A stretch of DNA of 31,923 nt from an uncultured Ruminiclostridium sp. (GTDB taxonomy: Bacteria > Bacillota > Clostridia > DSM-8532): NCBI GenBank assembly GCA_964462075.1, contig CAYWXN010000001.1, positions 1-31,923 of the forward strand, in the 5' to 3' direction. A program made the translations under genes and the position numbers. Each line of letters starts with the position of its first letter. Position 1 is the stretch's first letter. The notes under the pieces are model-generated. The model had not been told where the DNA came from. It was given only the letters and a program-made list of their open reading frames with translations, and ran no database searches. Shown here one piece after another: positions 145 through 18,172 of this stretch.

Positions 145-2775
145 TTATTTCCTTGGATTATTAACCTGAGCCTGTGCTGCTGCAAGACGAGCTATAGGCA
201 CACGGAACGGTGAACAGGAAACATAGTTCAAACCTGCTCTATGACAGAAATCAACCGATGAAGGCTCTCCGCCGTGCTCCCCACAGATACCAAGTTTTAT
301 ATTAGGACGAGTCTTTTTCCCTAATTGAACTGCCATTTCAACCAATTTACCAACACCTGTCTGGTCGAGCTTTGCGAATGGATCTGATTCATAGATTTTC
401 TTCGCATAGTAATCTTCAAGGAAGTTGCCGGCGTCGTCACGGGAGAATCCGAAGGTCATCTGGGTTAAGTCATTGGTTCCGAAAGAGAAGAATTCTGCTT
501 CGGTCGCAATATCGTCAGCTGTTAAAGCTGCCCTTGGAATCTCAATCATTGTTCCCACCATGTACTTAAGATCAACTCCGGCTTTTTTGATTATCTCATC
601 AGCAGTTTTTACCACAACATCTTTTACATACTTTAATTCCTTAACATCTCCGACAAGAGGAATCATAATTTCAGGTATAACGCTCATGCCTTCCTTATTT
701 ACATTGATAGCTGCCTCAATAACAGCTCTGGTTTGCATTTCTGCAATTTCAGGATAAGAAACTGCCAAACGACATCCACGATGGCCCATCATAGGGTTAA
801 ATTCATGAAGGCTTATAACAACTGCCTTTAAAGCATCAAAACTCATACCCATTTCTTGGGCTAAATTTGCTATATCATCATCCTCCTGAGGAAGGAACTC
901 ATGTAGCGGCGGATCCAAGTAACGAATGGTAACAGGGAAGCCCTTCATTTCGCGGAAGAGACCTTCAAAGTCCCCTCTCTGCATGGGAAGCAATTTGTCA
1001 AGTGCCTTTCTTCTCTGCTCTTCAGTGCGGGAAACAATCATTTCACGCATAGCTTTAATTCTTTCGCCTTCAAAGAACATGTGCTCGGTACGGCACAGAC
1101 CGATTCCCTCTGCACCGAATTTGAAAGCCTGAGCTGCATCTGCGGGGGAATCCGCATTTGTTCTTACCTTAAGCACCCGGAGCTCGTCTGCCCAGCTCAT
1201 AAATTTACCGAAATCACCGGTAAGCTCAGGAGCAACAGTAGGTAATTTGCCTGTATAAACATTACCTGTCGAACCGTCAAGAGAAATCCAGTCGCCTTCT
1301 TTATAAATGTTTCCTGCTTTATCTTTAAAGATTTTTTCAGCTTCATTTATTGTAAGCTCACCACAGCCTGCTACACAGCATCTGCCCATACCACGGGCTA
1401 CAACAGCAGCGTGGGAGGTCATACCACCGCGAGCAGTTAAGATACCCTGCGAAACGTGCATACCCTCGATATCTTCAGGTGATGTCTCAAGACGTACCAG
1501 AATAACCATTTTCTCGCCATTCTCAAATGCTTTGGCCGCATCCTCAGCTGTAAAGAATACCTTACCTGTAGCTGCTCCGGGAGAAGCGGGAAGCCCCTTT
1601 GCAATAGGCTTTGCAGCCTTTAAAGTTTTTGATTCAAAATTAGGATGGAGAAGTGAATCAAGCTGTTTCGGCTCAACCTTCAAAATTGCTTCTTCCTTTG
1701 TCAGCATACCTTCGCTAACTAAATCAACAGCAATTTTTAAAGCAGCTTGGGCTGTACGTTTACCATTTCTGGTCTGAAGCATGAATAATTTGCCGCGTTC
1801 AATAGTAAACTCCATATCCTGCATGTCACGATAGTGATTTTCAAGGGTATTAGCTATTTTGACAAACTGATCATATGCAGTAGGGTTAGTTTCTTTAAGC
1901 TGGTCAATGGTCTGGGGAGTACGAATACCCGCAACAACATCTTCCCCCTGAGCATTCATTAGGAATTCGCCATAGAGCTTCTTTTCGCCGGTTGATGGAT
2001 TTCTGGTAAATGCAACACCGGTTCCTGAATCTTCGCCCATATTACCATAAACCATTTCCTGTACGTTAACAGCTGTACCCCAATCACTTGGAATATCGTT
2101 CATACGACGATAGTAAATAGCTCTTGGATTATCCCATGAGCGGAAAACAGCTTCTACTGCTTCTATCAATTGAACTTTAGGATCCTGCGGGAATTCTGTA
2201 CCCTTTTCTTTTTTATATAGGTCTTTATATTGTTCAACGAGTTTCTTTAAATCGTCGGCTTCTAAGTCAGTATCCAGCTTAACACCCTTATTATTCTTCA
2301 TTGATTCCAATAGATGTTCAAACTTATTTTTTTCAATTCCCATAACAACATCGCTGAACATATGAATGAATCTTCTGTAGCTGTCATAAGCAAATCTCGG
2401 ATTATTTGTAAGTTTAGCAAGTCCTTCAACAACCACATCATTCAGGCCGAGGTTAAGAATTGTATCCATCATACCGGGCATTGATGCTCTCGCACCGGAA
2501 CGAACCGATACAAGTAATGGATTCTCAGGGTTTCCAAATTGCTTTTCAACTACCTGTTCCATTTTGGTCAAATACTGATAAATTTCATCCTCAATATCTT
2601 TTTTGATTGTCTTTCCGTCATCATAATATCTGGTACATGCCTCTGTTGTAACTGTAAAGCCTCTAGGTACAGGCAAACCAAGGCCTGTCATCTCAGCAAG
2701 GTTTGCACCCTTTCCGCCGAGTAAATTCCTCATCGAAGCATTTCCTTCGTTGAAGAAATAAACGTATTTAATCAT
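145..2775 (-). CDS. ppdK: Pyruvate, phosphate dikinase
   Basis: 876 aa; N-terminal LLGGKGANLAEM, phospho-His motif GGMTSHAAVVARG, GIGLCRTEHMFF, FSFGTNDLTQ, GICGEHGG; RBS GGAGG upstream. Confidence 0.98.
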   Translation of the reverse strand: MIKYVYFFNEGNASMRNLLGGKGANLAEMTGLGLPVPRGFTVTTEACTRYYDDGKTIKKDIEDEIYQYLTKMEQVVEKQFGNPENPLLVSVRSGARASMPGMMDTILNLGLNDVVVEGLAKLTNNPRFAYDSYRRFIHMFSDVVMGIEKNKFEHLLESMKNNKGVKLDTDLEADDLKKLVEQYKDLYKKEKGTEFPQDPKVQLIEAVEAVFRSWDNPRAIYYRRMNDIPSDWGTAVNVQEMVYGNMGEDSGTGVAFTRNPSTGEKKLYGEFLMNAQGEDVVAGIRTPQTIDQLKETNPTAYDQFVKIANTLENHYRDMQDMEFTIERGKLFMLQTRNGKRTAQAALKIAVDLVSEGMLTKEEAILKVEPKQLDSLLHPNFESKTLKAAKPIAKGLPASPGAATGKVFFTAEDAAKAFENGEKMVILVRLETSPEDIEGMHVSQGILTARGGMTSHAAVVARGMGRCCVAGCGELTINEAEKIFKDKAGNIYKEGDWISLDGSTGNVYTGKLPTVAPELTGDFGKFMSWADELRVLKVRTNADSPADAAQAFKFGAEGIGLCRTEHMFFEGERIKAMREMIVSRTEEQRRKALDKLLPMQRGDFEGLFREMKGFPVTIRYLDPPLHEFLPQEDDDIANLAQEMGMSFDALKAVVISLHEFNPMMGHRGCRLAVSYPEIAEMQTRAVIEAAINVNKEGMSVIPEIMIPLVGDVKELKYVKDVVVKTADEIIKKAGVDLKYMVGTMIEIPRAALTADDIATEAEFFSFGTNDLTQMTFGFSRDDAGNFLEDYYAKKIYESDPFAKLDQTGVGKLVEMAVQLGKKTRPNIKLGICGEHGGEPSSVDFCHRAGLNYVSCSPFRVPIARLAAAQAQVNNPRK

Positions 2776-6363: not shown

Positions 6364-6741
6364 CTACTTATCCATAGCAAGAACATTCTTTATTGATTGG
6401 TAAACTCTTGACTTATCAAAGGGTTTTACGACAAAATCCTTGGCACCCTGTTTAATGGCTTCAATAACCATTGATTGTTGCCCCATTGCCGAAACCATTA
6501 TAATACGCGTCTTCGGGCTAACGTTCAGGACTTCCTTAACAGCCTGTATGCCATCCATCTCGGGCATGGTTATATCTAAAGTCAAAATATCCGGTTGATA
6601 TTTCTTCGCAGCATCAATAGCTTCATGACCATTAGATGCTTCTCCTACAACTTCATAATCGTCGGATTGCTCAATGATTTTTCTTAATAAGGTTCGCATG
6701 AATATTGCATCATCAGTAATAACAAAAGTAATCTTACTCAT
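6364..6741 (-). CDS. cheY: Single-domain response regulator, CheY-like
   Basis: 125 aa receiver only: DD(10-11)AIFMR, D56-ITMPEMDG, MVSAMGQQ, FVVKPF, matching Firmicute CheY; start overlaps the rsmE stop by 4 nt. Confidence 0.85.
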   Translation of the reverse strand: MSKITFVITDDAIFMRTLLRKIIEQSDDYEVVGEASNGHEAIDAAKKYQPDILTLDITMPEMDGIQAVKEVLNVSPKTRIIMVSAMGQQSMVIEAIKQGAKDFVVKPFDKSRVYQSIKNVLAMDK

Positions 6742-9890: not shown

Positions 9891-11831
<1,941 letters not shown>

Positions 11832-11837
11832 TTATTG

Positions 11838-12413
11838 TCAATTTGCCACCTTTACCATTGAATGACGTATTACTACTTCATCTTTATAAATATAGCCTTT
11901 TTGAAATTCTTCTGTTATTATGTTGCATTCGAGAGTATCATCCTCGATATGCATAACAGCATGATGAAATTCCGGATCAAAGCACTTGCCAACTGCTTTA
12001 ATAGGCTTGACACCTAATTGACACAATGTGTCTACAGTTTGCTTATAAATTAGATTTACACCTTCCTGTAATCCCTGGCTTTCTTCCTTTTCAGCTGCCG
12101 TTACAGCCCTTTCGAAGTTATCCACTACCGGAAGAAATTTTCCTACTACATCGGCAACCGCATCGACATAAATTCTTTCTTTCTCTTTCTGAGTCCTTTT
12201 TCTGAAATTATCAAATTCCGCAGCCAACCGTTGCATTCTTTCTAATAATTCTTTTAACTCAGCATCTTTCTTTTCGACGACCTCATTAAGGTCGATGTCT
12301 TCATTTTGTTTATCCAAATCATCATCGTTTGGTGTAGGTGATTCAGTAATTATGTCAGCTTCTTCGTCCTCGATGATTATCTTTTTTGGGTCAACATCAT
12401 TGCTTTTAGTCAT
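11838..12413 (-). CDS. grpE: Nucleotide exchange factor GrpE
   Basis: RLAAEFDNFRKR, FLPVVDNFERA, FDPEFHHAV, QKGY..VIRHSMVKVAN. Confidence 0.97.
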   Translation of the reverse strand: MTKSNDVDPKKIIIEDEEADIITESPTPNDDDLDKQNEDIDLNEVVEKKDAELKELLERMQRLAAEFDNFRKRTQKEKERIYVDAVADVVGKFLPVVDNFERAVTAAEKEESQGLQEGVNLIYKQTVDTLCQLGVKPIKAVGKCFDPEFHHAVMHIEDDTLECNIITEEFQKGYIYKDEVVIRHSMVKVAN

Positions 12414-12435: not shown

Positions 12436-13491
12436 TCAGGGGTCATCCCCAAACATTCGTATTATTTCTCTATTCAGAAGTTCCCTGATGTATTTTATTG
12501 AAGAAACCACCTTACCATAGGTCATACGTGTCGGCCCTATGACGCCGATGGTTCCAATATCCTTACCCTCTCTGCCATAGACAGTGGTAATTATACTCAG
12601 ATCCTTCATTTCATCAATTTCATTTTCACTGCCTATTTTAAAGTCAAACTGCTGCTTTTTTGATGACTCAATGACTAATTGGTTTATTATTTCTTTTTCC
12701 TTAAGAAGATCCAAAACCTCACGTGCTTTTATTAAATCATTAAACTCGGGGTAGTTTAATATATTAGTTATTCCGTCCAAATAAACATCCGAAGTAGCAA
12801 TTTTTCGTACGCAGTCTTCTATTGCTTCAAAAATCGGTATTATCGCTTCGGTAGGGATATTAAAGTCTTTTTGCAGTTCCTTTACCATAGGCATAGAAAC
12901 CTGATCTATAGTTTTCCCTGATATAATCATGTTAAAAGCCTGATTAAGCTTTGCAATATGATTGTTATCAATTTTTTTCTCGTGGTTTATAAGCCTATTG
13001 TGAACAATTCCGCCTCCCGCAACTATTACCACCAGTATTCTTCTTTCGTCAACACCTAAGAGCTGAACGGACTTTATTACTGTTCTTGAAAGCTGTGGGG
13101 TCATTACGAATGCAGTGTATCCTGTTATATGGGATATAATTGTACCGGCTCTTTTAATAAGCTGATTAATTTCTTCGATCTTTTCGTCCATAGCCTCTCT
13201 GATAATGACCATTTCATTCTTGGCAAGACTATGAATCTGCATTAAATTTTCTACATAGAATCTATATCCTTTATCAGAGGGTATCCTTCCGGCAGATGTA
13301 TGGGGTTGGGTGATAAAACCTAACTCCTCTAAGTCAGCCATTTCGTTGCGTATAGTTGCAGAGCCAAGGCCTAACTCGTGTTTTCTGGCAATAGTCCTGG
13401 AACCAACAGGCTGAGCCGATTGGATATAATCATCTATTATGGATTTCAATATACTACGTTTTCTCTCATTAAGCTCATTTTCCAAGACCAT
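12436..13491 (-). CDS. hrcA: Heat-inducible transcription repressor HrcA (start at ATG 13491, 351 aa)
   Basis: QPVGSRTIA, SATIRNEMADLEELG, PHTSAGRIPSDKGYRFYV, GVIGPTRMTY; GGAGGTG RBS before 13491. The ORF-track start falls inside the CIRCE operator. Confidence 0.97.
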   Translation of the reverse strand: MVLENELNERKRSILKSIIDDYIQSAQPVGSRTIARKHELGLGSATIRNEMADLEELGFITQPHTSAGRIPSDKGYRFYVENLMQIHSLAKNEMVIIREAMDEKIEEINQLIKRAGTIISHITGYTAFVMTPQLSRTVIKSVQLLGVDERRILVVIVAGGGIVHNRLINHEKKIDNNHIAKLNQAFNMIISGKTIDQVSMPMVKELQKDFNIPTEAIIPIFEAIEDCVRKIATSDVYLDGITNILNYPEFNDLIKAREVLDLLKEKEIINQLVIESSKKQQFDFKIGSENEIDEMKDLSIITTVYGREGKDIGTIGVIGPTRMTYGKVVSSIKYIRELLNREIIRMFGDDP

Positions 13492-13513
13492 TACCTTCAC
13501 CTCCGCTCTATTG

Positions 13514-13540
13514 TTAGCACTCTCTGTCATTGAGTGCTAA
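13514..13540. promoter_or_regulatory. CIRCE element (HrcA operator)
   Basis: Exact consensus TTAGCACTC-N9-GAGTGCTAA (ttagcactc tctgtcatt gagtgctaa) upstream of hrcA. Confidence 0.98.
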
Positions 13541-13544
13541 TATT

Positions 13545-13573
13545 AAAATATCATTCTAGTTTCTCTTTGTCAA
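13545..13573 (-). promoter_or_regulatory. Sigma-A promoter of the hrcA-dnaK operon
   Basis: TTGACA (13568-13573), 17-nt spacer, TGa-TATTTT (13545-13550), immediately upstream of CIRCE. Confidence 0.8.
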
Positions 13574-13625: not shown

Positions 13626-13653
13626 AATACCCGTGTACGAATACACGGGTATT
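13626..13653 (-). terminator. Hairpin terminator after the CheA-like gene
   Basis: Perfect 12-bp stem aatacccgtgta / tacacgggtatt with a TTCG loop on the minus strand, 39 nt past the stop at 13693. Confidence 0.75.
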
Positions 13654-13692: not shown

Positions 13693-14961
13693 TTATCTCT
13701 GAATTATTATGGACATTCGAACCCCTTCACCATGCATATCATCGGTTTCCAGTCTACATTTCAAATAACTGAGCTTTTGCATATTTTCAATATATTTATT
13801 GTCTGATTTCAGTTCTTCCAAATCAGTAACAACATCACCGGTGATATCGATATGTACATAATTATTGTCTTCATATGCTACCACTTCAATACTGCCGATA
13901 CGTTTATTCTCTTCCTTCTTGCTATACACCTTCTCAAGAAGCAGCCAGATTAAATCACCAAGCGGAAGTGAAATCCTGTCCGCGATCTCCTTATCTACCT
14001 CAATATTCTCGCCCAGAGTAGAAAACATAACCTCAAGATGATTTTCCTCAATTACTGAACATACTAATCGCGTAAGCTTTTGGAATGCTTGCTGCAAGGT
14101 TACCATGCGCAATTCTTTCAGAATATTTCGGATATCGGTAATCAAGTGATAGGCTTTTGTGGACTCAATAGTCAATGCATCATTGCTGCCGAAACGAAGA
14201 ACAGCTTCATCTTTCACCGAATCATATAATGAACTGACATTTTGTATTATTTCGATTATTTGATCCAATCGCTCCAAAGGAATTCTCACATATTGGTCGG
14301 CAGAACTCGTATTGCGGACCTTCTGCATTCGGATTGCTTTTATAATGTCTGAGGCATCTACCTTTTTTTCTCTTAGTACGATTTCTCCAAACTTCATTTT
14401 ATTGTTGCTGCTATTTTGTTTTTTCAGAACGTCCTCAACTTCCGATTGGGCTAAGGCTCCCTCCTGGACCAAGATTTCTCCTATGCGGGATTCTCGTACC
14501 ATGGGCTGACGTACTTCAAGAAGAATATCATCCTTGCTGCTGGCAAGATTCATTAGATGTCTGATAACTTCCCCGTTAAATTTGTTGTCATCCATTATCT
14601 TAGGATTATTGTTTAGCTTTTTAATAAAGTTGATAGAATCCAGAATCAGATTTATTATGGTTTTTGATATTACAGGACAATATTTTCTTACTGCTTCAAG
14701 CAACTCTTCAGTAGCTACGGTTATTTTTGTACTGGCAGTATTATTAAGAAGTCCTGAAAGTCCTCTGATTGTGTGGAAGCTGCAATAAATAGAATTCAGG
14801 CATTCCTTATTACCGGGATCCATTTCTAAATTTACAAGTTCGAGCTCAATGTCATCCAGAATCTCCAGAATCTCTCCCAGAAAATCTTCCATATAACTAT
14901 TGCTGATTTCCGAAATCACGGGCACTGCTACAGCTATATCATTATCTTTCTTTTTTGCCAT
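13693..14961 (-). CDS. CheA-like protein: Hpt + tandem MshEN-like motif + dimerization domain + degenerate HATPase, no CheW domain
   Basis: Hpt SFH63TIRGLSG; RIGEILVQEGALAQSEVEDVLKKQ and KFGEIVLREKKVDASDIIKAIRMQ; YVRIPLERLDQ..LRMVTLQQAFQKLTRLV as in the CheA P3/P4 junction; AAAGGAGG RBS at 14969-14976. Confidence 0.8.
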   Translation of the reverse strand: MAKKKDNDIAVAVPVISEISNSYMEDFLGEILEILDDIELELVNLEMDPGNKECLNSIYCSFHTIRGLSGLLNNTASTKITVATEELLEAVRKYCPVISKTIINLILDSINFIKKLNNNPKIMDDNKFNGEVIRHLMNLASSKDDILLEVRQPMVRESRIGEILVQEGALAQSEVEDVLKKQNSSNNKMKFGEIVLREKKVDASDIIKAIRMQKVRNTSSADQYVRIPLERLDQIIEIIQNVSSLYDSVKDEAVLRFGSNDALTIESTKAYHLITDIRNILKELRMVTLQQAFQKLTRLVCSVIEENHLEVMFSTLGENIEVDKEIADRISLPLGDLIWLLLEKVYSKKEENKRIGSIEVVAYEDNNYVHIDITGDVVTDLEELKSDNKYIENMQKLSYLKCRLETDDMHGEGVRMSIIIQR

Positions 14962-15003
14962 GAAGATCCCTCCTTTATACCCCTTATTAAATATAATATT
15001 ATA

Positions 15004-16143
15004 TTATATTAATTCAACAATAATTGCATCGGCAATGTCCATTCCTTTTTTTGTTAATTTTATCACTGGCCCTTGCCGTTCAACGAGTTTTTGTGCTATA
15101 AACTTTTCAATCTTTCTACCATGCTTTCTCACTAAATCAATTTTAAAATCTTTTGAAAGCTTTGAGAGATCAATTCCCTCATTAAGTCGCAGCCCTAAAA
15201 AAATACTTTCTTCAAGTTCGTTTTCCTTCGAAAGATAACTATCCTCCGATAAAATCAGATTTCTTTTTTTAACACCTTCAATGTACCCCAAAACATCGGC
15301 TATATTGGCAAAACGTCTTCTATTGTAATGTGAATGTGCACCTGCACCAACTCCGAGGTATTCTCCTCTTCTCCAGTAATTCATATTATGTCGGCATCTT
15401 AAATGAGGTTTCGCAAAATTTGATATTTCATATTGATATAGTCCTGCTGCATTAAAGCTATCAACAGCATAATGATACATCTTCCTGTCAAGTTCATCCT
15501 CTGCCTCTTTGATAATGCCTTTTTTCTTCATATCACCGTAAACAGTACCATCCTCAATAATTAAGCTGTAACATGAAACATGAGCAAGGTCTAAGTCTAT
15601 AACCCATTTTATAGTATCTTGCCATTGTTCAAAAGTCTGATATGGAATACCAAATATAATATCGGCATTTAAATTTTCGAATTCATGTTTTTGTGCCAGT
15701 TTTAAAGAAAACAAAAAATCTTCGCAGGTATGAATTCTACCCAGTTCTTTTAGGATTTTATCCTGACGAGCTTGTAGGCCAATACTTAGACGGTTTACAC
15801 CGGAATCCTTATATACTATTAGCTTATCATCGGTTAGAGTGCCCGGATTGCATTCGATAGTGCATTCCCAATCCGTGGAAACCTTATAATATGAATAAAC
15901 GGTATCCAGTATTTTAGATATATACACAGCAGGAATCAGAGATGGCGTTCCGCCCCCTATAAAAACAGTCTCTACATGTGGGTTATTGAATTCTTCTGCC
16001 TTAAGTATAAGTTCAGAGACCAGAGCATCAATATATGCTTTCCAAAAGTCCTCCATCCCGGAATAGGACGGAAAATCGCAATAAAAGCACTTCTGCTTGC
16101 AAAAAGGGATATGAATATATAAACCGATTTGTTTTTGATCCAT
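15004..16143 (-). CDS. hemW: Radical SAM heme chaperone HemW (HemN-like)
   Basis: LYIHIPFCKQKCFYCDF (CxxxCxxC), FIGGGTPS, ECNPG, RLSIGLQ, YEISNFA, HNMNYW, GVGAGAHS; follows lepA. Confidence 0.95.
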   Translation of the reverse strand: MDQKQIGLYIHIPFCKQKCFYCDFPSYSGMEDFWKAYIDALVSELILKAEEFNNPHVETVFIGGGTPSLIPAVYISKILDTVYSYYKVSTDWECTIECNPGTLTDDKLIVYKDSGVNRLSIGLQARQDKILKELGRIHTCEDFLFSLKLAQKHEFENLNADIIFGIPYQTFEQWQDTIKWVIDLDLAHVSCYSLIIEDGTVYGDMKKKGIIKEAEDELDRKMYHYAVDSFNAAGLYQYEISNFAKPHLRCRHNMNYWRRGEYLGVGAGAHSHYNRRRFANIADVLGYIEGVKKRNLILSEDSYLSKENELEESIFLGLRLNEGIDLSKLSKDFKIDLVRKHGRKIEKFIAQKLVERQGPVIKLTKKGMDIADAIIVELI

Positions 16144-16167: not shown

Positions 16168-17979
16168 TTACGTATCCAGCTTCAGGACGCTCATAAATGC
16201 CTCTTGCGGCACTTCTACGCTGCCGACCTGACGCATACGCTTCTTGCCTTCCTTCTGCTTTTCAAGCAGCTTTCTCTTTCTAGATATATCTCCTCCGTAG
16301 CACTTGGCGAGAACGTCTTTTCTAAAGGCTTTAACCGTTTCCCTCGCTATTATTTTGTTTCCTATACAGGCTTGTATCGGAATCTCAAACATTTGCCTTG
16401 GGATAGTTTCCTTTAATTTTTCGGCCATTCTTCTTCCTCTTGAATATGCCTTGTCGGCATGAATAATGAAGGTAAGTGCGTCGACTACCTCATTGTTCAT
16501 CTTAATATCCATCTTAACAAGGTTAGACTCCTTATAACCTTTAAGCTCATAATCTAATGATGCGTACCCTTTGGTGCGGGATTTCAATGCATCAAAGAAA
16601 TCATATATTATTTCATTAAGCGGCATCTCGTACTTCAACATGGCTCTGGTTGCTTCCAGATATTCCATACCCAGATATGTTCCCCTCCGTTCCTGACAAA
16701 GCTCCATTATATTGCCTACATATTCAGTAGGCGACATTATGGTAACATTCACTATAGGCTCTTCCATACTCTCGATTAATGTTATATCGGGCATATTGGT
16801 GGGGTTATCAAGTTCGATTATTTCTCCGTTGGTTTTTATTATTTTATAGATAACACTTGGTGCTGTCGTAATAAGATCGAGATTATATTCACGCTCCAAC
16901 CGCTCCTGAATAATCTCCATGTGAAGCAATCCAAGAAATCCGCAGCGGAAACCAAAGCCTAATGCTTTAGAAGTCTCAGGCTCAAACATTAATGACGCAT
17001 CATTTAGCTGAAGCTTTTCAAGAGAATCCCTAAGGTCACCATATTTAGAACCGTCGGCGGGATATATACCGCAGAACACCATGGGAACAGCCTTTTTGTA
17101 CCCAGGTAATGGCTCTTTAGCCGGATTTGATGCAATAGTTATAGTATCACCGACACGACAATCCTTAACATTTTTAATACTTCCACAGATAAAGCCTACC
17201 TCCCCGGCGAGAAGTGTTTCGCTGGGTATAAGTCCTCCGGGCCTTAAATAACCGATTTCTGTTATTAAAAATTCCTTTCCGGTGTGCATCATACGAATAA
17301 TATCACCCAGTATGGCTTTTCCTTCCATGACACGAACATATGCAACAACACCTTTGTAGGTATCATAGTAGGAATCAAAAACCAAGGCTCTTAAAGGATC
17401 GTCATCATCACCTGTCGGTGGAGGAATGGTCTCAACTATTTTTTCCAAAACACTATCGATATTTATTCCGTTTTTAGCTGATATTTGCGGAGCTCCTTGT
17501 GCTTCAATACCTATTACATCTTCTATTTCCTGAATTATCTCATCAGGTCTTGCACTGGGAAGATCTATCTTATTAATGACTGGCATTATCTCAAGGTTGT
17601 GTTCAAGAGCAAGGTATACATTGGCCAAAGTCTGGGCTTCTATTCCTTGTGAAGCATCAACCACCAACACTGCCCCTTCACAAGCCGCAATGCTTCTGGA
17701 AACCTCATAGTTAAAATCCACATGACCCGGTGTATCAATAAGATTTAGAATATATTCAATACCGTCAGATGCCTTATATACCATTCTTACTGCTTGCGCC
17801 TTAATGGTTATTCCGCGTTCGCGCTCAATATCCATATTGTCAAGAACCTGCTCATCCATTTCTCTTGAGGTAAGAGCACCGGTTTTTTCGAGCAGTCTGT
17901 CGGCTAAAGTCGATTTACCGTGGTCAATATGCGCTATTATGCAAAAATTACGTATTCTCTTCTGTCTTTCTAATCCCAT
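16168..17979 (-). CDS. lepA: Elongation factor 4 (start MGLERQK, 603 aa)
   Basis: [73 protein letters not shown]; GGAG RBS before ATG 17979. Confidence 0.98.
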
Positions 17980-18021
17980 ATTCACAAAACTCCAATAAGT
18001 GTATTGATTAATTAAATCATA

Positions 18022-18050
18022 ATTATACCATAAGCACTTTTCACGTACAA
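18022..18050 (-). promoter_or_regulatory. Probable sigma-A promoter of lepA-hemW
   Basis: TTGTAC, 17-nt spacer ending in TGG, TATAAT (extended -10). Confidence 0.6.
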
Positions 18051-18172
18051 TTGTAATGACATCACCCATTACCGAAATCAAAGAATTTTAGGTCTATATT
18101 TATTATGCAACATTTATAGGGTTTGTCAGTCATAAATATAAGCTAGGATGAAGCAGATCTATAAGGAGCAGT

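Follow-up and report, generated by a model that had tools for sequence, protein, structure and literature searches.

A kinase-dead CheA paralogue with an MshEN-like module, conserved in one family of Clostridia

In a stretch of DNA of 31,923 nucleotides (nt) from an uncultured Ruminiclostridium sp. (GenBank assembly GCA_964462075.1, contig CAYWXN010000001.1; referred to here as the window), we analyzed an open reading frame (ORF) at positions 13693..14961 of the minus strand (protein P0001, tentatively referred to as X), and identified it as a kinase-dead CheA paralogue without a P5 domain. That X is a selected, kinase-dead derivative of CheA is close to certain in our judgment. The protein combines a P1 histidine phosphotransfer (Hpt) domain, a small module resembling the MshEN domain that binds cyclic di-GMP (c-di-GMP), a P3 dimerization hairpin, and a P4-like domain stripped of its ATP-binding motifs. 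Based on sequence comparison and structural models, X can be read as a dimeric Hpt adaptor that works without ATP, responds to c-di-GMP and receives its phosphoryl group in trans, a reading to which we give a probability of about one half. An initial annotation of the window, made from the letters alone, had described X without the MshEN-like module, which is central to the protein and changes its likely mechanism.

Domain anatomy and the missing ATP site

The component parts of X were delimited as follows:

13693..14961 (-), the complete and uninterrupted ORF of X, 422 amino acids (aa) plus stop
14509..14913 (-), P1/Hpt domain, residues 17-151, five helices; from an NCBIfam CheA N-terminal match, profile matches to CheA P1 structures in the PDB, and the helices of an AlphaFold2 (AF2) model
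14773..14775 (-), codon of His63, the putative phospho-acceptor, which aligns with His48 of Escherichia coli CheA
14323..14487 (-), tandem MshEN-like motifs, with motif 1 at residues 159-182, a 7-residue spacer, and motif 2 at residues 190-213; from a match to NF053729
14110..14298 (-), P3 dimerization hairpin, residues 222-284, including the CheA-type entry Q-Y-V-R-I-P-x-x-x-L-D; from alignment, profile, Foldseek and AF2
13696..14109 (-), degenerate P4-like alpha/beta domain, residues 285-422, without N, G1, F and G2 boxes and without the ATP lid; from alignment and Foldseek matches to CheA P4

A Pfam scan of the single X protein gave no match to HATPase_c, H-kinase_dim or CheW, and its Hpt match was sub-threshold (17.9 bits, against a cutoff of 24.6). 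As Pfam is too weak on this single sequence, the domains were established by profile comparison, structure prediction and alignment. The profile of the X family matched CheA P1 structures at E-values of 4e-11 to 6e-14, with the P1 domain of CheA3 (3kyi) among the matches, and its positions 221-378 matched CheA residues 260-422 (E 2e-21 to 6s1k, 6e-12 to 4xiv), the P4 homology ending at profile position 378, which is the position of the G1 box. An AF2 model built from 83 orthologues, with a mean predicted local distance difference test score (pLDDT) of 81, resolved a five-helix P1 (residues 16-151), a four-helix domain (154-216), a hairpin (229-284, with helices at 229-257 and 262-284), and an alpha/beta domain (286-421). 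The best PDB match of this model in Foldseek was the P3P4 unit of Thermotoga CheA (4xiv; E 2e-9, template modelling score 0.63-0.66), followed by other CheAs. His63 lies in the sequence SFHTIRG on the second helix of the P1 model, and the alignment with E. coli CheA places Arg66 on Lys51 and Glu85 on Glu70. The initial annotation had recognized an Hpt domain with this histidine and a CheA-like dimerization region and P4 entry, and both assignments hold.

To examine the ATP site, X was aligned with four intact CheAs, one of which was the C-terminal CheA fragment encoded in the same genome. Where the others have the N box (H-x-x-R-N-S-x-D-H-G), X has DLIWLLLEKVYS; in place of G1 (D-D-G-x-G) it reads TGDVV, followed by a 17-residue gap; and a 24-residue gap takes in both the F box and G2 (GRGVGxDVV). 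What is retained from the end of P4 is the final G-x-G and the last strand (GEGVRMSIIIQR), and the protein terminates where the P4-P5 linker would start, so that the P5/CheW domain is absent. These losses are family-wide: the N box is without its His and Mg-binding Asn, G1 without its first Asp and its two Gly, and the F box, the G2 box and the ATP lid are gone. Feature by feature, X thus has the P1 domain and P3 hairpin of a CheA and lacks the P4 boxes and P5. It is predicted to have no usable canonical ATP site and, because P5 is absent, to be unable to couple to CheW or receptors. The initial annotation had likewise reported the N and G1 boxes as replaced, F and G2 as missing, and the protein as stopping after the last P4 strand without a CheW domain; its description of X as a catalytically dead CheA paralogue is supported in the sense of a CheA-derived protein without a usable canonical ATP site.

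The MshEN-like module and the descent of X

The MshEN motif consists of two 24-residue units of the form R-L-G-x2-h-h-x2-G-h-h-x4-L-x3-L-x2-Q (Wang et al., 2016; PMC5013675). In X, the two MshEN-like motifs belong to the four-helix domain at residues 154-216, which occupies the usual position of P2 between P1 and P3. The NCBIfam model NF053729 matches residues 159-213 (E 1.5e-7, 31.1 bits) over its full length (model positions 1-53 of 53), and it also matches 73 of the 83 orthologues at E <= 0.001, the best of them at 1.8e-10. Motif 1 of X carries consensus residues at all six key positions. Across the orthologues, the c-di-GMP contact positions of this motif are conserved (R/K159 in 74, G161 in 78, L179 in 79 and Q182 in 78 of 83), and the positions in between are variable.

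When residues 148-224 were modelled separately (AF2, pLDDT 75), the seven best PDB matches were all of MshEN type, and included the c-di-GMP-bound GSPII-B domain of PilF (8pfa, 9gl5), MshE with c-di-GMP (5htl), and the N-domain of PilB. Root mean square deviations (rmsd) were 1.0-2.6 Å, with probabilities of 0.97-1.0 for the first six matches and 0.51 for the seventh; the E-values were weak (0.15-5) because the domain has only about 57 residues. Against 5htl and 8pfa, the rmsd was 1.0-1.4 Å over 56-57 columns at 21-28% identity. The sub-domain model therefore has the four-helix MshEN_N fold of the N-domains of MshE, PilF and PilB, whose tandem 24-residue motif X resembles, with deviations in motif 2 and the spacer. 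In MshE, PilF and PilB, the function of this domain is to regulate an ATPase of secretion or of pili. Judging from the motifs and the model, X probably binds c-di-GMP at this module.

A profile search run exhaustively over 1.8 billion representative sequences returned six X clusters first, followed by proteins of 830-1080 aa. The best full-length relative (P0125/P0271; 897 aa, E 1.9e-117) has three Hpt domains, an MshEN-like module, P3, an intact HATPase_c domain and CheW; between P1 and the G1 position in mid-P4, P0125 and X share 32% identity, and P0125 is encoded in the operon cheY-cheX-cheX/C-cheA-cheW-mcp-cheR-REC-cheD-cheB. A shorter relative, P0090 (624 aa), with the order Hpt-MshEN-like-P3-P4-P5, is also 32% identical to X from P1 to mid-P4 and lies in the operon cheA-cheW-mcp-cheR-cheD-cheB. 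These relatives, uncharacterized CheAs of metagenomic or MAG origin, resemble X in their 7-residue spacer, their Lys/Asn-type turn in motif 2, and the lack of P2, but differ in having intact N, G1, F and G2 boxes, a P5 domain and complete che operons, whereas X is solitary between hemW and hrcA. Since its nearest full-length relatives are intact CheAs with an MshEN-like module, X is best described, on sequence grounds, as an offshoot of the MshEN-CheA class that is truncated and kinase-dead. In an ESM Atlas feature search, residues 222-422 retrieved generic CheA fragments only, with scores of <= 0.86.

At E <= 1e-30, the X profile picks up about 548 representative clusters, and the top-ranked ones that were checked are CheAs with an MshEN-like module, so the MshEN-CheA class looks large. 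The gene for the 897-aa CheA (L093:8001-10694) is followed by one whose product, a sensor protein longer than 1600 aa, contains dCache and PAS domains.

Fusions of MshEN to CheA have been catalogued previously (Wang et al., 2016; PMC5013675, Supplementary Table 4), and actinobacterial CheAs of this type (P0096) are among the sequence matches. Like X, the catalogued proteins carry an MshEN_N-type tandem motif directly before P3, and their P1 and P3 are homologous to those of X. Unlike X, they retain P2, a complete P4, and P5; X lacks P2, the N, G1, F and G2 boxes, and P5, and is found in one Clostridia family. In the literature searched beyond the 2016 catalogue, we found no experiments on any MshEN-CheA or on a kinase-dead CheA like X. 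The initial annotation, which did not recognize the architecture as a characterized one, had missed that it derives from this catalogued class.

Conservation, genomic setting and candidate partners

A search of 5.8 billion proteins yielded about 88 orthologue clusters of X, 390-433 aa in length and 40-96% identical, all from metagenome-assembled genomes (MAGs) of Clostridia apart from Thermoclostridium caenicola. Orthologues down to 40% identity are of equal length (about 420 aa) and share the same deletions. X is present as one copy in 49 of the 55 genomes of the GTDB family to which the source organism belongs, covering seven of its eight genera, and in neither of two genomes from other families of the order. 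In a sample of 400 genomes of the class, none outside that one family contained X, and the other matches were CheAs of 600-900 aa. A scan of the genome collection gave 45 X loci, with T. caenicola DSM 19027 (65% identity) as the only cultured carrier; the carriers form one family of mostly uncultured anaerobic-digester Clostridia. The gene order lepA-hemW-X-hrcA-grpE was found at all 48 loci with flanking sequence, again down to 40% identity, and in the one genus of the family that has no X, lepA-hemW-hrcA are arranged with a spacer of 0.3-0.6 kb. X diverges at about the rate of hemW and hrcA (in one example, lepA is 78%, hemW 42%, X 46% and hrcA 48% identical). X appears to have entered the interval between hemW and hrcA a single time, in an ancestor shared by most of the family.

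The ratio of non-synonymous to synonymous substitution rates (dN/dS), determined by the Nei-Gojobori method against the five closest orthologues, was 0.04-0.07 for the whole gene, 0.05-0.12 for P1, 0.005-0.03 for the MshEN-like module, 0.01-0.03 for P3, and 0.04-0.06 for the P4-like domain; these values are approximate, with dS at 1.0-2.0 even in the closest pairs and at saturation in the others. All parts of X are under purifying selection. The initial annotation had argued against simple decay from the uninterrupted ORF, strong ribosome-binding site and terminator, and had named missing orthologues with a dN/dS near 1 as signs of recent pseudogenization; we found the opposite, with about 88 orthologue clusters that keep length and deletions under low dN/dS. 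Mean column conservation among the 83 orthologues differs between the segments of the protein:

Motif 2, 0.89, the highest block of the protein
First half of the P4-like domain, 0.79
Linker between motif 2 and P3, 0.77
P3, 0.76
Motif 1, 0.71
P1, 0.65
Last third of the P4-like domain, 0.52

One fast-evolving sub-lineage (P0066, P0072, P0073 and P0077; 390-401 aa) has motif 1 deleted and His63 replaced by Asn, and is represented at G007:C126:9117-10277 and G008:C13:6287-7480. In this clade, motif 1 is lost and the His is mostly lost, while the ORF is intact with motif 2, P3 and the P4-like domain; it may represent a further step of functional reduction.

The signals around X in the window, together with one further gene considered as a partner, are:

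14969..14974 (-), Shine-Dalgarno sequence AGGAGG of X, 7 nt 5' of the ATG
13626..13653 (-), intrinsic-terminator-like hairpin of 12 bp with 5 GC pairs and a T-rich tail, 40 nt past the X stop, which parts X from hrcA
13514..13573 (-), hrcA promoter-like site TTGACA-17-TATTTT, followed by the CIRCE inverted repeat TTAGCACTC-N9-GAGTGCTAA, read directly from the sequence
6364-6741 (-), stand-alone CheY-like receiver P0122, 125 aa, its start overlapping the stop of rsmE, within the gene order dnaJ-prmA-rsmE-REC-yicC; an orphan receiver embedded among housekeeping genes

All genes around X are on its strand. Upstream are lepA (16168-18081) and a hemW/HemN-like radical-SAM gene (15004-16143), and beyond X follow hrcA (12436-13530), grpE (11838-12413), dnaK (9891-11744) and then, in order, dnaJ, prmA, rsmE, the 125-aa receiver and yicC. 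Only 42 nt separate the hemW stop from the X start, a spacing which makes it probable that X is co-transcribed with lepA-hemW. The CIRCE repeat before hrcA, identified by its established consensus, is perfect and marks the start of a separate heat-shock operon. Because the terminator, the promoter-like site and CIRCE all separate X from hrcA, X is placed by these signals as the last gene of a lepA-hemW-X unit and outside the heat-shock operon. The CIRCE operator (13514-13540, minus strand) overlaps the first ATG (13530) of the mechanically called hrcA ORF, and the real start of hrcA is probably a downstream Met (MVLENELNERK...), as in the orthologue at L050. In one MAG, a gene for a predicted membrane protein of 366 aa (L050:5377-6477) is inserted between X and hrcA.

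The source genome, whose assembly is 79% complete, encodes 16 GGDEF-domain proteins, 13 methyl-accepting chemotaxis proteins and three CheW-domain ORFs. It also contains the C-terminal fragment of a canonical CheA (HATPase_c plus CheW), followed by cheW and cheC/cheX (L003 (G000:C40) 1492-2514, minus strand); this genome gives no H-kinase_dim match because the canonical CheA is cut by the contig end. A canonical CheA co-occurs with X in the source genome and in all sampled carrier genomes. By its gene content, then, the organism is chemotactic and makes use of c-di-GMP, and X is an additional CheA paralogue in it. In one deep clade of X, a gene for a 134-aa receiver lies between X and hrcA, its start overlapping the X stop codon (L022:7266-7670, and also L023, L071, L072, L073 and L079), and its acidic pair, phospho-acceptor Asp, Ser and Lys are all intact. 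As a clade-specific hint at a receiver partner for X, this gene stands alone.

Proposed mechanism, rival explanations and significance

In the proposed mechanism, X would dimerize via P3 and receive its input as c-di-GMP at the tandem MshEN-like motifs, the last helix of which would run into the entry of P3, and the P1/Hpt domain would serve as output. His63 would be phosphorylated only in trans, either by the P4 domain of a true CheA or by a phosphorylated CheY-type receiver through back-transfer. Gated by c-di-GMP, X would serve as a phospho-shuttle, sink or adaptor between the level of the second messenger and a Che-type phosphorelay. A more far-reaching version, which we put forward tentatively and consider possible rather than probable, is that X represents a new class of c-di-GMP effector, namely a dimeric, ATP-independent, CheA-derived histidine phosphotransferase in which the availability of Hpt is set by MshEN-bound c-di-GMP.

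Bacillus Spo0B and Caulobacter ChpT are dimeric phosphotransferases derived from histidine kinases, with a dead catalytic domain, that relay phosphoryl groups between other proteins. They resemble X in having a helical hairpin and a C-terminal alpha/beta domain derived from an ATP-binding domain; however, their His is on the dimerization helices (class I), whereas that of X is on a separate Hpt domain (class II, the CheA layout), and they have no c-di-GMP module. The known connections of c-di-GMP with chemotaxis run mainly through PilZ adaptors and CheY-like proteins. In the split CheA of Rhodobacter sphaeroides, CheA3 consists of P1 and P5 with a phosphatase region, and CheA4 of P3-P4-P5; CheA3 is a precedent for a CheA-family protein unable to autophosphorylate: CheA4 phosphorylates the His of its P1 in trans, and this His then serves, or dephosphorylates, a CheY (PMC6829392, PMC3591291). 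By analogy, X may work like the P1 domain of CheA3. It is not a member of the CheA3 type, as CheA3 lacks P3 and P4, keeps P5 and sits in a receptor cluster, whereas X has P3, a dead P4 and the MshEN-like module, and no P5.

Several observations weigh against the proposed adaptor. Regarding its input, the NF053729 score of X is below the curated cutoff of 38 bits, the spacer between the motifs has 7 residues instead of 5, and motif 2, which retains K, F, the first G, I, I and the last Q, has Lys199 in place of the turn Gly; an intact CheA with the same deviations, including the Lys-type turn of motif 2 (P0091), passes the cutoff with 44.4 bits. Motif 1 is degenerate or deleted in nine of the 83 orthologues, whose genes are still intact, and is therefore not indispensable to the X family. 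Regarding its output, the residue at position 63 is His in 70 of the 83 orthologues and N, D, R, Y or Q in the other 13, with losses in at least three well-supported, separate clades of a maximum-likelihood tree rooted with P0090 (four losses if the tree allows losses only), and these His-less genes likewise stay intact. His63 is thus not indispensable to the family either, and phosphotransfer is not the whole of its conserved function. The receiver at 6364-6741 was rejected as an X-specific partner, since its orthologues, 67-96% identical and equally far from hrcA, occur in almost all of the order's 58 genomes, including those that lack X. In two metatranscriptomes, contigs of 272-297 nt match the interior of X exactly; they are a weak sign of expression, as these matches are few, low-depth and possibly DNA carry-over.

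The repeated loss of His63 from intact, conserved genes is also what favors a different explanation, in which X is a non-catalytic scaffold or decoy that acts purely by binding, and may form inactive P3 heterodimers with the canonical CheA, or sequester CheY or the P4 of CheA through its P1 and dead P4; phosphorylation of His63 would then be irrelevant, and c-di-GMP, if bound, would tune binding. An invariant core made up of motif 2, P3 and the first half of the P4-like domain fits this explanation, as does the presence of a canonical CheA in the source genome and all sampled carriers. It is hard, however, to reconcile a functionless site with the behavior of the residues around it, because Glu85 and Arg/Lys66, whose counterparts in CheA support phospho-His chemistry, are kept alongside His63 in most lineages and tend to go together with it: Glu85 is present in 69 of the 70 His-bearing orthologues (by subtraction from a total of 74 in 83) but in only five of the 13 His-less ones, so that the pair behaves as one functional unit. 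Further, identity between P3 of X and P3P4 structures of CheA is only about 17%, so that heterodimerization is not obviously favored. We regard the scaffold as unlikely, but as the main rival of the adaptor. The phospho-relay or sink suggested by the initial annotation is supported in part, by the intact environment of His63 in X itself (Glu85 and Arg66), and is weakened by the replacements of His63 elsewhere in the family; its other suggestion, an inhibitory heterodimer partner, stands as a candidate role only.

The remaining explanations fare worse. The invariable order of lepA, hemW, X, hrcA and grpE might suggest that X is tied to its neighborhood, as a c-di-GMP-responsive regulator of the hrcA-grpE-dnaK-dnaJ operon or of LepA or HemW function, but fixed synteny is expected from one insertion followed by vertical descent, the Pfam and NCBIfam scans detected no DNA-binding domain in X, and the neighbors work without X in the sister genus that has nothing between hemW and hrcA. 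That genus, together with the terminator, separate promoter and CIRCE operator between the two genes, led us to reject a functional link of X to hrcA, and a role in the neighborhood as a whole appears quite improbable. X could in principle still be an autokinase that binds ATP non-canonically in a remodelled P4-like domain, given that this domain is under purifying selection and keeps the alpha/beta sandwich, the second Asp of D-D-G (D376) and the terminal G-x-G; yet with the catalytic boxes and lid absent throughout the family, HATPase_c unmatched in Pfam, and P4 homology ending at profile position 378, we consider this highly improbable. Least credible of all is a functionless, decaying CheA remnant. 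Although the catalytic motifs and P5 are lost and one clade has eroded further (long branches, motif 1 deleted, His lost), the gene is intact across 49 of the 55 family genomes and in about 88 clusters of constant length, has a low dN/dS at a dS of 1-2, and possesses a strong ribosome-binding site and its own terminator; the sole apparent truncation, in genome G010, was considered as a pseudogene and rejected, as it is a contig end.

If the more far-reaching version is correct, a second messenger would be wired directly into a chemotaxis-type phosphorelay, by a class II counterpart of Spo0B and ChpT. X can be seen as a natural dissection of an MshEN-CheA, from which catalysis and receptor coupling are gone while P1, the MshEN-like module, P3 and the P4 shell are strongly selected, which indicates a non-kinase job for these retained parts. 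As a small soluble protein, it could be used to ask what c-di-GMP does to the P1-P3 unit of CheA, and the cultured carrier T. caenicola DSM 19027 makes such biochemistry feasible. With X, the few pseudo-enzymes listed as derived from histidine kinases would also gain a member of the CheA class.

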